Source: an uncultured delta proteobacterium | GTDB taxonomy: Bacteria; Myxococcota_A; Polyangia; Polyangiales; Polyangiaceae | DNA: 64,000 bases | NCBI GenBank assembly: GCA_963850305.1 | Contig: CAWKKR010000007.1 | Span: 192,001 to 256,000 of the forward strand | Direction of reading: 5' to 3' | Part shown: positions 27,669-37,487 of the stretch, in pieces | Layout: every line of letters starts with the position of its first letter | How positions within the stretch are numbered: position 1 is the first letter of the stretch | Position numbers and translations under genes: made by a program | The notes under the pieces: generated by a model | Database searches by the model: none | Seen by the model: the letters and a program-made list of their open reading frames with translations, nothing else | What the model was told of the DNA's origin: nothing

Positions 27669-27910
27669 ACGGCGTGGGGTTTTGTTCCTGGGGGGTGTCC
27701 CACCCCCCGCGGCTTGCTTCGCAACCGCGCCCCCCGGTACTCGCTGCGCTCGGCGCCGTGGAACGGCTGGAGCAAGCGGGGGCAGAGACGGGAGTGACGG
27801 CGTGGGGTTTTGTTCCTGGGGGGTGTCCCACCCCCCGCGGCTTGCTTCGCAACCGCGCCCCCCGGTACTCGCTGCGCTCGGCGCCGTGGAACGGCTGGAG
27901 CAAGCGGGGG
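27669..27910. repeat. Two near-identical 114-bp direct repeats (27669-27782 and 27797-27910) with internal hairpins, REP/MITE-like
   Basis: Both copies run acggcgtggggttttgttcctgggggg...ggagcaagcggggg, separated by a 14-bp spacer. Stems are ggggggtg/cacccccc and gcggcttgc/gcaaccgc. Confidence 0.9.
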
Positions 27911-27991: not shown

Positions 27992-28882
27992 TCAGTGCGC
28001 AGCGGGTTCGCGCGTCGCGGAGGGGGAGGGGACGGGGTTCACGACGGGCGGGACGGGGGCGGGCTCGGGCGCGGGCTCCGGGGACGGCGCCGCGGGCTTC
28101 GGGTGGCGACCACGGCCGGCGTAGAGCGAGGGCGTGATGGTGTCCGAGGCTCCTTGCTGCCACTCGATGAAGGCCACGCCGTGCCGCACTCGCTCGTAAG
28201 CGTTCACCATGAGGGTGAATGCTTGCTGGCGGATGAGCGCCGTGGCGGCGACCGCTTCCGGACTGTGCTCCTTCTGTCCGACGGCCGCGACGAGCTGTTC
28301 GGCCAGTTCTTTTGCTTTCTGGAGATCCGCTTCGACGAGCGCCGTTCTGGACTGGATCTGCTGCCAGTATTCACCGAGCAGGTTCGCCCAGGCCATGAGC
28401 TCGAAGGCCACGTTGCGGTAGCCGACGCGGCCGGTGAAGGACGCAAACCGCGCCGGATTGACGAGTCCGTGCTTCGCGAGGGTCATCGCGTCCGTGCGTA
28501 GTGTGTCGCGCAGCGCGACCGCCTGCTCGTTCAAGGCTACGAGCTCGGCAGGCGGCGCGATCGTGATGAAGTACAGCGAGTCCGCTTCCCACGCCGCCAT
28601 CGCGTAGTCCGGCAACGCGTCGACGTCTTCGAGGTCGAAGTCCGGTAGCTTCGCGAGCTTGCTGCGGAGCGCGTTCACCGCCGCCAAGACGCCGAGGATC
28701 GTCGTCACCGCCCCGGCGATGTCGATGTTCACCGGTAGCAGTGCGCTCTCCGGCACGGCCTGGATGTCGGCGAGGCGCCGCTCATAGGCCGCGTGGAACG
28801 AGGACTTGTCGCGGAATGCGCCCGGGGCCTGCGCCTTGCGGTTGCTGGACTTCGGGTTCTTGTGATGAAGGTGCGTTGTCAT
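27992..28882 (-). CDS. Hypothetical alpha-helical protein with Pro-rich tail
   Basis: 296-aa ORF with GC3-biased codons and a good SD (AGGAG) before ATG 28882. No catalytic motif recognised. Confidence 0.8.
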   Translation of the reverse strand: MTTHLHHKNPKSSNRKAQAPGAFRDKSSFHAAYERRLADIQAVPESALLPVNIDIAGAVTTILGVLAAVNALRSKLAKLPDFDLEDVDALPDYAMAAWEADSLYFITIAPPAELVALNEQAVALRDTLRTDAMTLAKHGLVNPARFASFTGRVGYRNVAFELMAWANLLGEYWQQIQSRTALVEADLQKAKELAEQLVAAVGQKEHSPEAVAATALIRQQAFTLMVNAYERVRHGVAFIEWQQGASDTITPSLYAGRGRHPKPAAPSPEPAPEPAPVPPVVNPVPSPSATREPAAH

Positions 28883-29022
28883 GGTCGTGTCTCCTGGTTG
28901 ATCCACGGAGCCGCTTGCTCCGTGCTTCCGATGATGAGACGCAGGCCCCGACTCTTTCCCTACGGAAGAAAATTTTTATTTTCGTTCACCCGACGCGACT
29001 CCGTGAACCGGCCGTCCGTCCA

Positions 29023-29410
29023 GTAAATGAGGTCAGCTGCTCCGGATCGTTCGCCGTGAATGAAATGGAGCAGGTGAGCTGCCGCGGGTCGTTCTTCATG
29101 AATGAAATGGAGCAGGTGAGCTGCCGCGGATCGTTCGCCGTGAATGAAATGGAGCAGGTGAGCTGCCCCGGAGGGTTCGTCGTGAACGAAATGGAGCAGG
29201 TGAGCTGCCGCGGGTCGTTCTTCATGAATGAAATGGAGCAGGTGAGCTGCCGCGGGTCGTTCGCCGTGAATGAAATGGAGCAGGTGAGCTGCCCCGGAGG
29301 GTTCGTCGTGAACGAAATGGAGCAGGTGAGCTGCCCCGGAGGGTTCGTCGTGAACGAAATGGAGCAAGTGACCTGTCTCGGAACGTTCACGGTGAACGAA
29401 ATCGACCCGA
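29023..29410. repeat. 42-bp tandem repeat array, 8 full units plus degenerate flanks
   Basis: The unit RTGAAYGAAATGGAGCAGGTGAGCTGCC-var starts at 29056, 29098, 29140, 29182, 29224, 29266, 29308 and 29350. Confidence 0.95.
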
Positions 29411-29470: not shown

Positions 29471-29995
29471 TCAGAACGCGAGCACGACGCGTTCCGTATC
29501 ACTCGGTCCGCAATCCGTCGCGAGCGGGGCGTGCACGTAGAGCGTGGCGTCGAGGGTGCCGTGAGGCGTCGTGTTCGGTCCGGCGGACGTCAAATTCAGG
29601 GTCATGCTGCCCGTCGGGACGCTGAGCGTGCCGGCAGCGTACGTACAGTTCGAGTCCCCGGCGACGGTCGCGATCGCGCTCCAGTCCGACAAGCCTTCCG
29701 AAGAGTAGTCGCCCGCCGATGGGTCGTCGCCGAGCGGCACGGCGATCGTCAGCTGCGCGAGATCCGGCGTGCTCGCGCTCAGGGTCAGCACGTAGGCCGC
29801 TCCGGCGTCGGCGGGCGGTGCCAGTTTCGCGCAGTCAGCGGGCAACTGCGCCGTCTCGGAGGTGTCTCCAGCGATTTCGACGGCGCAATCTTGCGCGCTC
29901 GAGGAACCGGAACACCCTGCCGCCGCCGCTGGCAAGAGCGCGGCAAGGATCGATGTGCCCAGCACCCGGAAGAATCGTTTCAGCGAGGACCTCAT
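29471..29995 (-). CDS. Small beta-rich lipoprotein of unknown function
   Basis: Signal peptide with lipobox AAGC. ATGA overlap with the upstream gene. Confidence 0.75.
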   Translation of the reverse strand: MRSSLKRFFRVLGTSILAALLPAAAAGCSGSSSAQDCAVEIAGDTSETAQLPADCAKLAPPADAGAAYVLTLSASTPDLAQLTIAVPLGDDPSAGDYSSEGLSDWSAIATVAGDSNCTYAAGTLSVPTGSMTLNLTSAGPNTTPHGTLDATLYVHAPLATDCGPSDTERVVLAF

Positions 29996-31924
29996 AGCGA
30001 TTTCAGGTACTCGACGAGCGCGTCGAGCTCGGTGGGTGCCGTCGGAGCGTTGGGCATCTCGAGCACCGCGTCGCGCAGCGTCTCGGCGCTGCCGTCGTGA
30101 AGGTACGGCGGCGTCGAGGCGACGCCGTTCAGAGACGGGGTATCGAAATCGCAGGCGGCGCGCGGGTTACCATCCACGTCTTGATGTGCGACATCCGGGA
30201 ACGACCCGGACGTCACGCACGTTCCGATGTCGTGAAGCAGGATCACGCCGCCGAGGTCGAGAGTCGGATTGCCTCCGCCGGAATCCGTGAACCGTTCGCC
30301 GCTGTGACAGCTCGGGCATCCCGAGCTCTGGAACAGAGCCTGGCCCTGCGAGACGAGAGTCGCGTTCGTGGTCGGCGGGATGGGCAGCGGGAGGCCAAAG
30401 TTCACGTAATCGGCGAGTGCGGAGAGGAGCGTCGCCTGGTCCGTCGCGTCGAATCTTCCGCCCTGTTCCACGTTGATGGTGTGAAAGTAGTCCTCGACCT
30501 TGGTTCGGTCGGCGGTGCGGAACAGAAAACCCGTTCCGAGCATGCCACCGGCGTTGGTCGGGGTATCGCGCGGCCCCTGCGAAAACTTCCACGTCACTGC
30601 GTCACTGCGTCCCTCCATGTGGCAGGTGGCGCACGAGATCCAGTGATCGGTCGTGATGGGGAACTCGGTGCTGTTCGCCGAATTGAAGAGCCGGTCGCCG
30701 AGGCGGAGAGTCTCGGGCATCGGGTCCGAGGTCCATAGCGGGATGGTCGCGCCGTCGACCGACGCGGAGAGCTTGTTGCCGGTGCGCGCGAGACGAAGCA
30801 CGGCGACATCGCCGGACTGCCGTTCATCGACGTAGGCGAACTGGTCGTCCGCGGACACGACGATGCCGTCGGGCATGAAGCCGGGCAGGGGACGCACGAG
30901 CCCCGACTCCACTTTCGTGTTCGCATCGACGATCAGGATGTCTTCGCTGTTTGCGGCGACCATGAGCGCAAAGTCGCCGTCGTGGGTGAACGCCACGGCG
31001 TGCGGTCCGGACACGACGTCCGCAAACGCGCCGTCAACGCCCGCGACGTCGGAGGCGTCCGTCGTGAGAGTCTGTTCGTACTTCCCGTCGTCGTGGAGCA
31101 CTGAGAGCGCCGGAAACGCGGTCGATTCGAAGTCGAGCGCGGGCTGCGCGGTATCGGTCGCCAGGAGTGCATGCGCCACCCAGACCTCGCCGGTCGAGGG
31201 TCGAGCTGCGACGTCGTAGAGGCCGCGAACTTGCCCGTGCGAAAGGAGGCGGTTGCCTCGTGGCGCCATGTCCGGCACCGCCCATGTGTCGAGGACCGAC
31301 ATTGCCCGAGGGTCCAGCGCCGTGACGCCCGGCCCCATGAATTGCGTGACGAGGAGCGTCGTTCCGTCGTTCGACCACCCGAGAGCCCAGGGTTCCGCCG
31401 CGACGGTGGCCGTCGCCTCGACCTTTCCGGTCGTCGCGTCGACTCGAACCACAGTCGAGTCTTGCGAGCACGCGACGTAAATCGACGCACCGTCGGGCGA
31501 CGACACCACCCGACAGGTTCGCTCCCCACGTGTACGGTGCGAGTCACCTGCTTCGTTGCCGCGTCGATGAAGTAGAGCGCACTCGAGCGCTCGCCCGTCA
31601 CATACAGCGTCGAGCCGTCTTTCGAGATCGCGACGGAGCGTGGCATCACGGCCGGAGCGAACGCGCCCGTCGGATCTGGCGCGGGTACCGCGTCGGCCAG
31701 GAGGATCTTGCGCTCAAGGTGCGACCCGCCACGTCCAGCACCGACACCGAATCGGCCTCGGGGTTGACGACGTAGAGCGTCGTTCCGTCCGGAGCGAGCA
31801 CCATCGACGACGAATGCGTTCCTCCCGAACCGCCGGGTGCCACGCCGCCACCGGCGTTCGAGCCACACGAGATGGCCAGCGCGAGCGACGAGGCGCAGGC
31901 GGCGGAGCGAATCCAGGAGGTCAT
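29992..31924 (-). CDS. YncE-like beta-propeller plus di-heme cytochrome c (peroxidase-like) lipoprotein, about 644 aa, with two apparent frameshifts
   Basis: Lipobox AISC, YVTN-like repeats (LYVVNPEADSVSV, LYVTG, IYVAC), CATCH, CPSCH and TPSL...PYLHDG. Single-base deletions near 31720 and 31512 join the three ORF pieces. Confidence 0.8.
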
Positions 31925-34344
31925 GGCGAAACGTGGAAGGTGACGGAGTCCGCGAGCGCGGAGGGCAGGTGCGCGTCGTCGATCTCCGGAACGCAGTCGT
32001 GCTCCCGATCGGACGTCGCGGTGCGCGTGCCCGCGTCCGGAGTCAGTTGCTCCTGCAGGCTCCCGGTTTCTCCCGTCAGCGTCCGCTCCGCCATCTGTAA
32101 CCCGCCGCGGGGTAAGCCATCGACGACGTCGGCGCATTCGTCTGGCCACGTCACGAACCGATTTTCGTCACGATCGTCCCAGCCGTTCAGCACGAGCTTG
32201 TTCAAGCGACCGACGCGCTCTTCGAGGATCGGTTCCAGCGCTTCGCCGCCCGGTCGCGACGCGACGATTTCATACATGTCGCGAAGACAGCTCTGCAGCA
32301 GGGCAAACCGGAGCGGCGTATATTCGACGGTGCTCACGGGTGCCGGCGTCGCGCCGTAGATGCGCGCCTCGGCGTCGTAAAAGACGGACTCTAGCCGGTC
32401 GAAGACGGCAATCGCGCGATCGTGGTACCGCTCGTCCCCTGTGGCGAAATACGCGGCGAAGAGCCCGCGCACCGCGGCCGTGTGCGAGTCGAGCAAATCC
32501 TGGGCGTCGATCGGTGCGCCCTTCGAGACGTCCCAGCCGTCGAGGGCGTGGCCGTCTGCTCCCGTGAGATGATTCAGCAGCAGGTCGGCCTCGCTCCGGA
32601 TGATCGCGGAAAGACGGGCCGTCAGCGCGGAAGCCCCGCCGTCCGCTCCACCGGCGCGGTGAATTGAAAACGCGTCGAGCGGGGTCGACTCGATCGCCGT
32701 GTCGGGAGTGTTGTTCGAATAGAGTTCGAGCTGCGAGCTCACGGAACGCAGCACCGTGCGGAGGCCGAGCAGCGCATAAGCCACGTCGATCGTCGAGGCT
32801 GTGGTGCCGCGCGTGGCCGTCGTCCCCGACATCGTGACGGTGTCCACGAGATAGCCCGAAGCCGGGTCCGTGTGCAGTCGGTCCGCGTTGACCAGGGCGA
32901 CCCGCATCATCGCGAGCGCGCGATCGTGGAGCGTCGGATCACCGTTGCCCTTCTGATCGTCGGCGGGAAACGGGTCGCCGTCGAAGTAAGCCATCGCAGG
33001 CTGTGAGCCGCCGACATCCGTGTTGTTCGTGTCGGTGAGTGCATAGAACTCGGCGTAGCCGAGGGCGAGCCCGATCGCGTCGAGCAGGTCGCTGTTCGGC
33101 GACGCGAGCGCGTACGAGGGCTGCGGGAAATGCCGTCGTGCCGGTTTCCGTCACTGCGATCGCGCCCGGGAACCAGCGGAGCGGCGACGTGTAGTCGTAC
33201 GCGAGCGCATCGGCGATCGAGGCAAAGCCGGACAGCGTCGCGCCGTCCGTCGTCGTGAGTCGGGTGAGCCAGTCCTGCGCGCGGTCGTCGACTTCTTCGA
33301 TGAACATCTGGGCCTGAAAACCCTCGATGTCGCTCGAACCGAGAAAGGTGCCCGCCTGCGTGGGGTTGCCGGAGTCATCCGCTCCGACGATCTGGTTATT
33401 CACCGAGCCGACGCTCGAGAGCGAGGAGGGGGGCACGCTGCTCACCGGATTTTCCTGCGAGTCGTGCATCGTCTGGAGGTAGTTCAGAACCCAGAGCCCG
33501 TACTTCCACGCGCTGAACCCGTCGGCGCCGGGGGAAACGACGAACTCGCTTTGCGACGTTCGGTCCCGCAGGTGAAGCGACGTCGCGTCGCACTCGTAAT
33601 CGGCGCAACCGAGTGAGCCCGACGCGCCCGGGTCGTCGTCCGAGCTTATTGCGCACCCTGAATCGATTGCGCTCGTAGGATCGATGGACGGATCGAAGCT
33701 GCGGAAGACGTGGGCCGTCGGCCAGAGGCCAGGCCACCCGAGCGGGTTATTCGCCGGGAGGCCCTTGCCGAGAGGGTTCGTGTCCCCCGCGCGTGGATTG
33801 TTGGCGGGAAACGTTCCCGCCGGGAAGACGAAGCGCCCGAGCCCGTTGCTTCCGGCGGCGAAGTGCTGAACGAGCGCCGCGAGCAGCCCCGTTGCCGCCG
33901 TTCCCGTCGCACCCGCGGGATTCGACGAGCGGGCCGTACGCGAGGGACGTCCCGGAGCCCGGCTTCGAGCGCCACGTTGTTCATCGGCTGCTTCGAGTAC
34001 TCGTACGACTCCACTGCCGTGGAAAAGCCGGGCAGATCGATCCAGGGGCCGTTCGCCAGCGGCGAGGTGTCGAAGTAGAGATCCGGGGGCAGATGGTCAC
34101 GGCTGTAATTGGTCAGGTCGCGGCCCATCGCTTCGGCGAAGGGCTCGCCGGAGACTTGCATTTCCCCGGCGGCGATGAAGTGCTCACGCGTCACGAAGCG
34201 CGTGCTTCCGACCGTCGCGGTGATGGTCTTGGTCTGCCGCGTCACACCCCCATCGATCGATGGCAGCCCGGCGGGACTGGTGCGGTGCTGCGATCCGCAG
34301 CTGACGGTCAGCACCACCCCAAGCAAACTCAGTCCGCGCTTCAC
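31921..34344 (-). CDS. Large lipoprotein of unknown function, about 806 aa, with three apparent frameshifts
   Basis: GTG start and lipobox TVSC. Removing one base each near 33960, 33925 and 33125 gives one continuous frame ending in ORF 31921-32994. Confidence 0.7.
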
Positions 34345-34359
34345 TCCGAGACGATATAA

Positions 34360-34374
34360 TGAAACTGATTATCA
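34360..34374. promoter_or_regulatory. Fur-box-like operator (7-1-7)
   Basis: TGAAACT-G-ATTATCA versus consensus TGATAAT-N-ATTATCA (12/14). It lies 16 bp upstream of the 34344 start, in a strongly AT-rich island. Confidence 0.7.
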
Positions 34375-34447
34375 CTTTCAAGAAAAAGAGCAACGAAGGA
34401 CCCTGTTGGAGCCAAAATAATGGTAATCCGTCTCACCGGACTGAAAG

Positions 34448-34462
34448 TGAAAGTTATTTTCA
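34448..34462. promoter_or_regulatory. Second Fur-box-like operator
   Basis: TGAAAGT-T-ATTTTCA (11/14 to consensus), abutting ATG 34462. Confidence 0.6.
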
Positions 34463-34977
34463 TGATAAGCCTGGTGGTTTCCGCCTTCCAGGTGGCCTGC
34501 GGCACGCCGACCGCAAATCCTGGCAGCGGCGAACCGCAATTCGTCGCTCTGGCCTCTGACTTCAAGGGCTACCACTCGTGGAAGAGCTTCGACGTCACGA
34601 CTGACGCGCCGCAGGCCGGCATCCACGACGGGAGTACGGTGACCGAGTACGTCAAGGCGCTTCCGCCGTCCGGCTCGACGTCATTTCCCGTCGGCACCAT
34701 CATCGTGAAGGAAGCGACGGGGGGAACGATCCCTCACGAGCTCTTTGCGATGGTGAAACGCGGCGGGGGATTCAACGCAGGCGCGCCGGGCTGGGAGTGG
34801 TTCGATCTTCAAAATCTCAACGACGGCGCGGACGACGTCGGAATCGTCTGGCACGGGCTCGCGCCCCCGCCTGGAGACACCTATTCCGGCAGCGCCTCGG
34901 CAGGCTGCAACACCTGCCACGCCGCCTGCGGCAACGACGCCGTTTGCGCAAAGGCGATGCAATTGGCGAACTTTTAA
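34462..34977 (+). CDS. Cytochrome P460-like mono-heme c lipoprotein
   Basis: FPVGTIIVKE, AMVKR, GWEWF and C-terminal CNTCH. Lipobox QVAC. Start uncertain. Confidence 0.7.
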   Translation: MISLVVSAFQVACGTPTANPGSGEPQFVALASDFKGYHSWKSFDVTTDAPQAGIHDGSTVTEYVKALPPSGSTSFPVGTIIVKEATGGTIPHELFAMVKRGGGFNAGAPGWEWFDLQNLNDGADDVGIVWHGLAPPPGDTYSGSASAGCNTCHAACGNDAVCAKAMQLANF

Positions 34978-35366: not shown

Positions 35367-37487
35367 ATGAAACGTGAACAATTCTTACGTGTCGGCCTGG
35401 GTACGGTATTAATTTTTGGTCTTGCCGGCAGCGCGCTCGTCGGCGCGTGCTCTGCGGGCGGAGGCAGCAAGAGTCTCGGGTCCTCCGGCGGAGGCCAGGG
35501 CAACCCGAACGGGGGCGTCGGTAACTACGGCGGAGGGTTCGTCGGCGAAGGAGGCCAATTCATCCCCACGCTGGGGAACGGTGGCCAGGGTGGCGCCGTC
35601 GGCGTGTTCACCGACGGCGGCTATCTCATCGCGAGCGACGGAGGCGTCAGTGACGCGCACGTCGGTCCCTCGACGGTCAATAACTGCGCAAACACGGCGC
35701 CCTTCCAGAATCCATCTGCCGGAAACCGCGTCGTCTATCCGTATGACGGCACCGTCTTTCCGCGCGGCCTCGCTGGTCCGCTCCTCATGTGGGACCAGCA
35801 AGCGACGCAGATCCTCATCCAGGCGAAGTCGCAGCTGTACACGTACACCGATTGCCCTCAGACACCTGACGGCGTTCGATACCAGCTCCCGGCCAACATG
35901 TGGGCCGGCGCTGCATCCTGGAGCAACGGCACCGGCGACCCGCTTCAGATCCAGCTGACCGTGCTCTCGGGCGGCAAGGCGACGGGCCCCGTCACGTTCA
36001 GCGTCAAGTTCGCGCTCACGACGTTGAAGGGCGCCATCTACTACAACACGTACGGCTCGCCCCAGGCCGGCAACGGCAACGGCGCCGTGATGCGGCTAAT
36101 TCCCGGCGACACCGCGCCCACGGTGTTCCTGACCGACAACGGCGTTGCCCCGCTCGGCCCGTGTCGGTCCTGTCACGGTCTTTCCGCCAACGGCACGACC
36201 ATGACGGTGAACCACCACGCCTACGGCTTCCCGAGCACGTACTCGAGCGAATCGTACGACGTCAGCACCGGGACGCCGAATCTGCTCCAGAGCAACATTC
36301 CGGAAGCGGGCTTCGCGGGCATCTTCCCCGACGGCTCGCGGCTCATGACGAATGGTCCGCCGAATCCATCTCTGAGCGCGATCTTTCCGACGTCCCCCGG
36401 GGACGTCACGGCGCTCGTGCAATCGACGTCGAAGATGCTCGACGTCCGAACGGGACAACCCATCACGACCACCGGCTGGAACGTGACGCACGCGCAGATG
36501 CCGATGTTCTCTCCCGACGGGCTCCACATCGTCTACAACGACGAGGACAAGGGCCCGACGACGAACATCACGAATCCGGGGACGCTGACCGTCGGCGGCC
36601 ACACCCTCTGGGTGCAGGACTTCGACCCGAACACGAACACCTTCTCGAATCCGCGGCAGATCTTCAGCGATCCCACGTGGTACGCGGCGTGGCCATTCTT
36701 CACGCCGGACTCCACCCAGGTGGTGTTCGCGGTGGACTCGCGGCCTGATTTCTCGAGCCAGGTTCCGGACGCTCTCGGCGGGAATGCGCTCACGGGCATA
36801 TGGCCCACGGTTGCCCAGTGCATCACGACGCCGGATCCGCAGACCTGCGTCGGCAATGGCCACCTCATGCTAGTGGATCTCGCGAGCGGCAAGGTCACCC
36901 CGCTCAACGCCGCGAACGGCTACAAGTCGGATGGGACGACGAGTTACTTGCCCGCGGGCAAGGGTCGCGACAACGAATACGAGTTCTTCCCGACCGTGAG
37001 TCCCTTCTCGGGTGGTGGGTTTGCGTGGGTGTTCTTCTCGAGCCGCCGCACCTACGGCAACGACGTGATGGATCCCAGTGCCACGAACCCCGGGGACCCC
37101 GGGATGCCGACGGCCAAGAAAATCTGGGTGACTGCGGTCCAGATGGGCGCTCCAGCTGGCACCGACCCGAGCTTTCCGGCGTTCCTCTTGCCGGGACAGG
37201 AACTGGCGAGCGGCAATATCCGAGCGTTCGCGGCCCTCGCGCCTTGCAAGGAAGACGGCTCTTCGTGCCAGTCGGGCTTCGACTGCTGCAAGGGCTACTG
37301 CTCCAACATCAAGAACGGCACCGGCATCTGCGGAAAAGTGGAGACGCAGACCTGCTCCCTCGTGGACGAGAGATGCAACACGACCGCCGACTGCTGCACG
37401 GGTCCCAACAACGGAGACAACGGCCGAAACCTCTATTGCATCCTCACCGCTGGCACCGGTTATTGCGAGGAGAAGGGCATCAACTAG
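35367..37487 (+). CDS. TolB-like (PD40) beta-propeller lipoprotein with Gly-rich linker and Cys-rich C-terminus
   Basis: Lipobox VGAC, YPYDGTVFPR, MPMFSPDG, WPFFTPD, WVFFSSRR, and two C-C-CC-C-C modules. Confidence 0.8.
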   Translation: MKREQFLRVGLGTVLIFGLAGSALVGACSAGGGSKSLGSSGGGQGNPNGGVGNYGGGFVGEGGQFIPTLGNGGQGGAVGVFTDGGYLIASDGGVSDAHVGPSTVNNCANTAPFQNPSAGNRVVYPYDGTVFPRGLAGPLLMWDQQATQILIQAKSQLYTYTDCPQTPDGVRYQLPANMWAGAASWSNGTGDPLQIQLTVLSGGKATGPVTFSVKFALTTLKGAIYYNTYGSPQAGNGNGAVMRLIPGDTAPTVFLTDNGVAPLGPCRSCHGLSANGTTMTVNHHAYGFPSTYSSESYDVSTGTPNLLQSNIPEAGFAGIFPDGSRLMTNGPPNPSLSAIFPTSPGDVTALVQSTSKMLDVRTGQPITTTGWNVTHAQMPMFSPDGLHIVYNDEDKGPTTNITNPGTLTVGGHTLWVQDFDPNTNTFSNPRQIFSDPTWYAAWPFFTPDSTQVVFAVDSRPDFSSQVPDALGGNALTGIWPTVAQCITTPDPQTCVGNGHLMLVDLASGKVTPLNAANGYKSDGTTSYLPAGKGRDNEYEFFPTVSPFSGGGFAWVFFSSRRTYGNDVMDPSATNPGDPGMPTAKKIWVTAVQMGAPAGTDPSFPAFLLPGQELASGNIRAFAALAPCKEDGSSCQSGFDCCKGYCSNIKNGTGICGKVETQTCSLVDERCNTTADCCTGPNNGDNGRNLYCILTAGTGYCEEKGIN

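Follow-up and report, generated by a model that had tools for sequence, protein, structure and literature searches.

Permeases of the FTR1 family need a ferrous oxidase, and in the part of the source cited here the identity of this oxidase in FtrABCD is unsettled (PMC11966278). A P19–FTR1 cluster has also been described, and the portion of that account drawn upon shows no propeller system (PMC8238504). Here we analyse a 64,000-nucleotide stretch of DNA (the window; positions 192,001 to 256,000 of contig CAWKKR010000007.1, assembly GCA_963850305.1) from an uncultured member of the Polyangiaceae, and within it a divergent cluster of four lipoprotein genes, named A to D, that share a promoter island with Fur-type boxes. 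The module is real, conserved and undescribed, and is probably a variant of redox-coupled iron uptake. We estimate at about 60% the probability that it is a Fur-repressed iron-starvation module of the cell envelope in which A would bind iron, B would shift the iron redox state, and an inner-membrane permease would import the metal; that the module is under iron-starvation control is, taken by itself, highly probable. Searches of the full-text literature, subscription papers aside, showed no description of it. The features of the locus, in window coordinates, are as follows.

Gene A: 31921..34344, minus strand, 806-amino-acid (aa) lipoprotein with a predicted (alpha/alpha)6 barrel; three surplus bases.
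Gene B: 29992..31924, minus strand, 644-aa lipoprotein, YVTN/YncE-like beta-propeller plus a di-heme cytochrome c peroxidase-fold domain, two CxxCH; two missing bases.
Gene C: 29471..29995, minus strand, 174-aa lipoprotein, predicted small beta-barrel.
Gene D: 34447..34977, plus strand, 176-aa mono-heme lipoprotein, distant relative of the cytochrome P460/c'-beta family.
AT-rich divergent promoter island: 34345..34465, no strand, 39% GC.
Fur-type box 1: 34358..34382, no strand, two overlapping 7-1-7 sites, matrix scores 20.0 and 17.9.
Fur-type box 2: 34446..34464, no strand, matrix score 16.2; overlaps the codon at which gene D likely starts.

The island is the lowest-GC 120-bp stretch of the whole window, and the three best matches of the 64 kb to the Fur 7-1-7 consensus all lie inside it, at 34360 (12/14) and at 34448 and 34366 (11/14 each). 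Box 1, placed 14 bp upstream of gene A, is an overlapping pair by matrix score as well (starts at 34358 and 34364), and a third, weaker Fur-type site lies at 34416 (14/19). Two separate sites scoring at least 16.2 occurred in none of 5000 shuffles of the island. An earlier note on this DNA, made from the sequence alone, had proposed an AT-rich island with two Fur-box-like palindromes, one per divergent start, and both proposals are borne out by the base composition, the window-wide ranking and the shuffles.

The gene content proposed there also stands: a lipobox-like Cys ends the N-terminus of all four proteins, CxxCH occurs twice in B and once in D, and ATGA overlaps join A to B (31921-31924) and B to C (29992-29995). 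Gene D most likely starts at the GTG at 34447, within box 2. Elsewhere too the Fur-type box often lies across a predicted start codon, its sequence coding for the MK(V/I/T)xF beginning of a signal peptide; apart from window 34447, this was seen for gene A of loci L022, L039, L058, L074, L076 and L089 and for gene D of L027, L045 and L086. The suspected indels are present, and frameshift-aware alignment to intact orthologues refines them to five single-base events, namely surplus bases in A at ~33959, ~33922 and ~33125 and missing bases in B at ~31712 and ~31506. The two frames contain no in-frame stops and are repaired to the lengths given above.

Conservation of the locus was followed in 79 Myxococcota A loci retrieved with the C-terminal half of A (best 80 of 102), which stem mostly from metagenome-assembled genomes of Polyangiaceae and Kofleriaceae. 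A was matched in 13 of 61 related genomes, the source genome included, and in 24 of the 251 genomes of a phylum sample, 13 of these matches being strong. The orthologues are syntenic, a point on which the proposal had been staked beforehand: B accompanies A in 48 of the 79 loci, C in 47 and D in 16, and all four genes occur together in seven. A box of at least 10/14 precedes A in 24/77 loci versus 59/3613 tiled windows (1.6% background), so that the palindrome is conserved upstream of orthologues, both in the window's clade and in a second deep clade. Its presence goes with B directly downstream (23/40 versus 1/36) and with D (16/16 versus 8/60), while it shows no association with C; one short locus was dropped from these association counts. 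When 69 A proteins are placed on a tree, the box label requires 6 changes versus 19.5 for shuffles, boxed copies being found in both deep clades and boxless ones mainly in two paralogue clades. Within the window's own genus, the nearest locus is an A-B-C cluster with a box.

The conserved unit is A plus B, and C and D are myxobacterial add-ons; of the four-lipoprotein unit proposed earlier, the core remains and the two smaller proteins fall outside it. In Kofleriaceae genomes the A paralogues number up to four or more, and most of them have no box and are accompanied by C alone (contigs of L020, L032 and L053; genome G298). A pair of divergently oriented propeller-cytochrome genes, each with six CxxCH, adjoins A at another myxobacterial locus (L208:748-6616) and resembles the hexaheme B described below.

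The question of the regulator was approached with a box matrix derived from 24 sites in relatives, to which the source genome contributed no site, and scanned over that genome. Nine sites score at least 16, versus one in the block-shuffled genome, and the top loci are bfd/bacterioferritin (25.0), a gene for a DUF6662-like barrel (23.4), feoB (23.1), and the A–D island (20.0). The presence of bfd/bfr and feoB in this set is an iron signature and points to Fur. No catalase, ahpC or znu genes were recognised beside the top 16 matrix matches inspected, and three Fur-family genes are present in the source genome. We suggest from these sites that Fur would be the repressor of the module. Further strong boxes occur at G000:C9:7243 and C8:481150 (18.3 and 17.1; G000 is the source genome).

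The DUF6662-like barrel is a 273-aa outer-membrane protein (G000:C8:1136279-1137100, L106) with two strong boxes; its nearest named Atlas clusters are DUF6662 (0.98), and it has no Pfam match. The same barrel family is found in 14/79 A loci, and bacterioferritin in 4/79. We regard this protein as a candidate iron porin. TonB-dependent uptake, which was also considered as a target of the box, was rejected: none of the 8 TonB-dependent receptors of the source genome is boxed, the best score within 3.5 kb upstream being 2.1.

Outside the myxobacteria, a profile search with A yielded 524 representatives; a plasmid search using the myxobacterial A gave no match. The homologues are secreted by the type IX secretion system in Ignavibacteria and Bacteroidota, and others occur in Aeromonas, Vibrio, Photobacterium, Moritella and further bacteria. 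The two A clades are homologous over their full length (probability 100, E 1e-45, 618 columns, ~25% identity). In Anoxybacillus amylolyticus, A (E 4e-42) and a full-length B (E 4e-121) are adjacent, each with its own 11/14 box, and lie behind a Fur-boxed DUF2325 gene; the zinc genes of this bacterium are preceded by a different palindrome, presumably of the Zur type, unlike the Fur-type boxes of A and B.

Metagenome loci of the Gammaproteobacteria type were also collected (best 80 of 156), and 71 of them carry a called A, falling into 35 clusters at 85% identity. B is found in 25/35 A clusters (24/27 of those with room downstream), an FTR1 permease with both RExxE motifs in 9/35, and a porin of the OprD or LbtU type in 6/35, while siderophore genes occur in a single cluster of the 35, of the Aeromonas type. 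The B of these loci has six CxxCH, and a small membrane protein either comes before it or is joined to it as a fusion. Ahead of A, 32/67 loci have a box of at least 14/19, versus 86/2565 tiled windows. The FTR1-type operons L113, L120 and L155 further encode a flavoprotein of the PRK07208 type and two other proteins, one small and secreted, the other an unnamed membrane protein that we take to be GT-C-like.

Expression of one such homologue has been reported. The part of the Aeromonas hydrophila study available to us (PMC6387970) reports that the amount of ORF01830/AHA_2481 in the secretome rises 10.2- and 9.8-fold on iron starvation, and that western blots did not detect it under iron-replete conditions; its deletion raised the median lethal dose modestly, and in that part of the study the product is left as a hypothetical protein and vaccine candidate. 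The cloning primer and the 2001-bp length of ORF01830 match the Aeromonas A homologue. Its neighbour AHA_2482 is given as GlgC in the cited part of PMC3341381, and the GlgC neighbour was also seen in the Aeromonas A loci of our analysis. The genome scan, the FTR1 linkage of distant homologues and the iron-induced A homologue together favour iron over Zur or PerR control, and the iron-responsive reading of the earlier note is supported on the same grounds.

Protein A has no family match in Pfam, NCBIfam or the PDB sequences. The model of an intact orthologue (mean predicted local distance difference test score 86) is an (alpha/alpha)6 barrel, helical and lacking CxxCH, whose closest fold is cellobiose 2-epimerase (Z 16.9, root-mean-square deviation (rmsd) 2.9, 340 aligned, 8% identity), followed by GH105 and GH76. 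Against the same model, Z values of 13-17 are common among unrelated (alpha/alpha)6 proteins. A resembles the AGE/cellobiose 2-epimerase and GH76/88/105 barrels in predicted fold; it differs from them by the low identity, twice the length, the lack of a match to any family hidden Markov model, and apparently other conserved residues. Among its polar residues, those conserved across four lineages (33 sequences) are mainly Glu, Asp and Tyr (E70, E76, E121, Y123, E124, Y125, E/D349, E790 and E796); K289 and W293 are also invariant, and only two His are near-invariant. Judging from this residue pattern, A may bind iron at an acidic Glu/Tyr site.

For protein B, the YncE-like propeller and the two CxxCH of the earlier description both hold, with the refinement that the propeller is fused to a di-heme peroxidase-fold domain. 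The protein aligns to 5c2v_B (E 3e-13), 5c2v_C (E 1e-12) and NF052342 (E 2e-13), scores weakly against the MbnH (E 3e-8) and MauG (E 3e-3) models, and has its heme motifs at peroxidase-fold spacing together with peroxidase-fold motifs. MauG and MbnH are marked by a Tyr that forms the sixth ligand of their second heme and by an inter-heme Trp, and this Trp is also a hallmark of di-heme peroxidases. All 33 myxobacterial B sequences have Met, and none Tyr, after the second heme motif (in the peroxidase-aligned column in 18/33, within a few residues of it in 15/33), and in all 33 the inter-heme Trp column is Arg; Anoxybacillus B keeps the Trp. The replacement of Tyr by Met and of Trp by Arg speaks against both a chemistry of the MauG/MbnH kind and a canonical peroxidase. 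The residues of B are compatible with an electron-transfer role.

The two remaining proteins would serve as myxobacterial accessories. Modelled, C is a small disulfide-rich barrel with no clear match; beyond the lipobox Cys it has four invariant Cys and an invariant Trp and His, and Foldseek gave no match under E 0.001. In VIA it comes nearest to LpqH (Z 8.6, rmsd 3.4, 105 aligned) and then, at Z 6-7.4, to the barrels of OmpW, hemophilin and TbpB; we set these likenesses aside as the shape of a common barrel. D was seen in myxobacteria only, within our sample. It is similar to cytochrome P460/c'-beta in the C-terminal CxxCH and in weak Pfam and PDB matches, and differs in scoring below the Pfam cut-off (20.5 versus 27 bits), in being a lipoprotein, and in its constant association with a Fur-type box in these loci. 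In the weak P460 alignment (E 0.04), a Lys is aligned in 11/13 sequences, in a column which we assume to be that of the cross-linking Lys of cytochrome P460.

From genomic context and conservation, one can suggest the following course of events. When iron runs short, Fur would come off both promoters, and iron would enter, in the source genome, via the co-regulated DUF6662-like barrel acting as an outer-membrane channel. A would bind the incoming iron, and B would oxidise or reduce the A-bound metal, passing electrons to or from it. Iron would then pass to FeoB in the source genome and to FTR1 elsewhere; the electron flow is expected to be oxidative with FTR1 and reductive with FeoB. More tentatively, and at somewhat less than even odds, A and B may represent a cross-phylum, siderophore-independent class of iron capture that combines a glycosidase-fold barrel with a propeller-cytochrome c and is served by FTR1 in Gammaproteobacteria or by FeoB and the DUF6662-like porin in myxobacteria, thus providing a heme-c redox partner for bacterial FTR1.

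On the main rival reading, A would be an (alpha/alpha)6 enzyme under iron control whose substrate is a carbohydrate or an iron chelator (an epimerase, glycosidase or siderophore-processing enzyme), B would oxidise or reduce the same substrate, and iron would be released chemically and not bound by A. We regard it as rather unlikely, even if the fold neighbours of A, sugar epimerases and glycosidases, speak for it, as do the agreeing Atlas leads for A (0.79), the flavoprotein and the membrane protein of the FTR1-type loci, the isochorismate/siderophore genes adjoining Aeromonas A, and the boxless A paralogues among secreted hydrolases. However, A lacks any AGE or glycosidase Pfam match, its fold is of little weight given the Z range of unrelated barrels, its conserved set is rich in acids and Tyr with few His, and free iron is the cargo of FTR1 permeases in the cited part of PMC11966278. 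Much less probable is a MauG/MbnH-type maturase function, by which B would oxidise Trp, Tyr or Lys in A and so build a metal site or a cofactor there, in the way that MbnH acts on MbnP: the weak MbnH and MauG matches, the propeller-plus-di-heme layout and the invariant K289, W293, Y123 and Y125 of A would fit it, yet the Met and Arg of B do not, and A often occurs without B. Slightly less credit still is given to a defence by B and the P460-like D against peroxide or nitrosative stress, controlled by PerR or a different member of the Fur family, or to a zinc module under Zur. The three Fur-family genes of the source genome, the ability of the B and D folds to handle H2O2 and N-oxides, and zinc ABC genes adjoining two loci may be cited in its favour; against it stand the iron genes at the top of the matrix ranking with no catalase, ahpC or znu recognised among the inspected top 16, the separate palindrome of the Anoxybacillus zinc genes, the missing peroxidase Trp of B, and the confinement of D to myxobacteria in the sample.

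Several observations weigh against the preferred reading, that of a Fur-repressed iron-capture module, in addition to the sugar-active fold neighbours of A. No box was found for 53/77 myxobacterial A copies, and the boxless clades often adjoin kelch or phosphoesterase genes; 4/5 same-genus A-B loci have no detected box, and four deeper-branching genomes have A with neither B nor box. Because the loci are related to one another, the counts make them look more independent than they are. Aeromonas A lies ~80 kb from B-FTR1, and neither the source genome (95% complete) nor six same-genus relatives gave an FTR1 match, so that the permease link there rests on the shared box. Finally, this genome's copy may be a pseudogene, an explanation compatible with any mechanism, by which A and B are decaying and the breaks are not long-read indel errors. 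The 1450 codons of A+B contain five indels, where the rate in 131 other genes of the assembly, 12 in 57,735 codons, gives an expectation of 0.3 (P(at least 4) = 3e-4), and 2/5 lie outside obvious homopolymers; since this density is about ten times that elsewhere in the assembly, read errors cannot simply be assumed. Conversely, 3/5 indels are at short homopolymer runs, indels also occur elsewhere in the assembly (10/131 genes), A and B have stopless frames with 65-80% identity to intact orthologues, and heme motifs, ATGA coupling and boxes are all intact. Contigs from three soil runs contain short identical pieces, and no break is spanned by any of the matches listed (20 of 108). The stopless frames, the intact boxes and the high level of identity speak rather for local read errors, and pseudogenisation appears the less probable of the two, at roughly one chance in three.

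The A+B pair offers a new testable candidate redox pair for bacterial FTR1-type permeases. In myxobacteria and in a Gram-positive bacterium this core would operate independently of FTR1, together with new accessories. A function would follow for a large unnamed family in Myxococcota, Bacillota, Gammaproteobacteria and the Fibrobacterota–Chlorobiota–Bacteroidota (FCB) group, including an abundant iron-induced secreted Aeromonas protein. The module would also give a first context for a DUF6662-like barrel. Full-text searches, subscription papers aside, gave zero papers on DUF6662 and likewise zero on the FTR1/Aeromonas/YncE combination. In addition, a compact Fur regulon is outlined in an uncultured soil myxobacterium, with TonB-dependent receptors (0/8 boxed) outside it.

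Around the module, a tandem array lies directly downstream of gene C (29030-29402, 42-bp unit, 8.9 copies, 87% matches), preceded in the window by a 304-aa open reading frame (27992-28906) of no confident family and with no match in the 79 A loci. An exact 128-bp duplication (1.9 copies, 27669-27910) just past a menB-like gene is either an element resembling repetitive extragenic palindromes (REP-like) or an assembly artefact. Downstream of D, 35367-37487 encodes a 700-aa TolB/PD40-like propeller lipoprotein; it is not a module member, because a related sequence was found in just 2/79 loci.

Compared with described di-heme proteins, B shares the propeller and di-heme architecture with the beta-gamma fusion of hydrazine synthase, as the NF052342 and 5c2v matches given above show, and differs from it in score (49 bits versus the cut-off of 1250), in the absence of an alpha subunit, and in its heterotrophic host and Fur-type box. 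A hydrazine synthase reading was scored low and rejected on the bit score and the missing alpha subunit, A being helical without CxxCH. With the bacterial di-heme cytochrome c peroxidase, B has the fold in common and differs by the absent inter-heme Trp. The MbnPH/MauG systems (MXAN_0976-0977 type) are alike in that a di-heme enzyme and a partner protein occur in a metal-related operon; B differs in scoring 33 versus 363 bits against the MbnH model and in having Met in place of Tyr and no Trp, and C has no TIGR04052 match.

Among iron-regulated proteins, A. hydrophila ORF01830/AHA_2481 (FIG00919923), iron-starvation induced and secreted in the cited part of PMC6387970, is a full-length homologue of A, although it shares only ~25% identity with it, is not a lipoprotein and is not adjacent to B. 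The closest known parallels are EfeUOB, FtrABCD, the P19 cluster and yeast Fet3-Ftr1, which, in the parts of the sources cited (PMC11966278, PMC8238504), are alike in low-iron induction and in combining an extracytoplasmic redox protein with a putative iron-binding protein; the likeness includes the FTR1 permease itself in 9/35 distant A clusters. The myxobacterial form differs from them in having no FTR1 nearby or in the source genome, and A–D have no EfeO/imelysin, DyP, P19, cupredoxin or polyferredoxin match in Pfam or NCBIfam. In place of these, the present module has as its accessory proteins a propeller-cytochrome c together with a protein of predicted (alpha/alpha)6 barrel fold.

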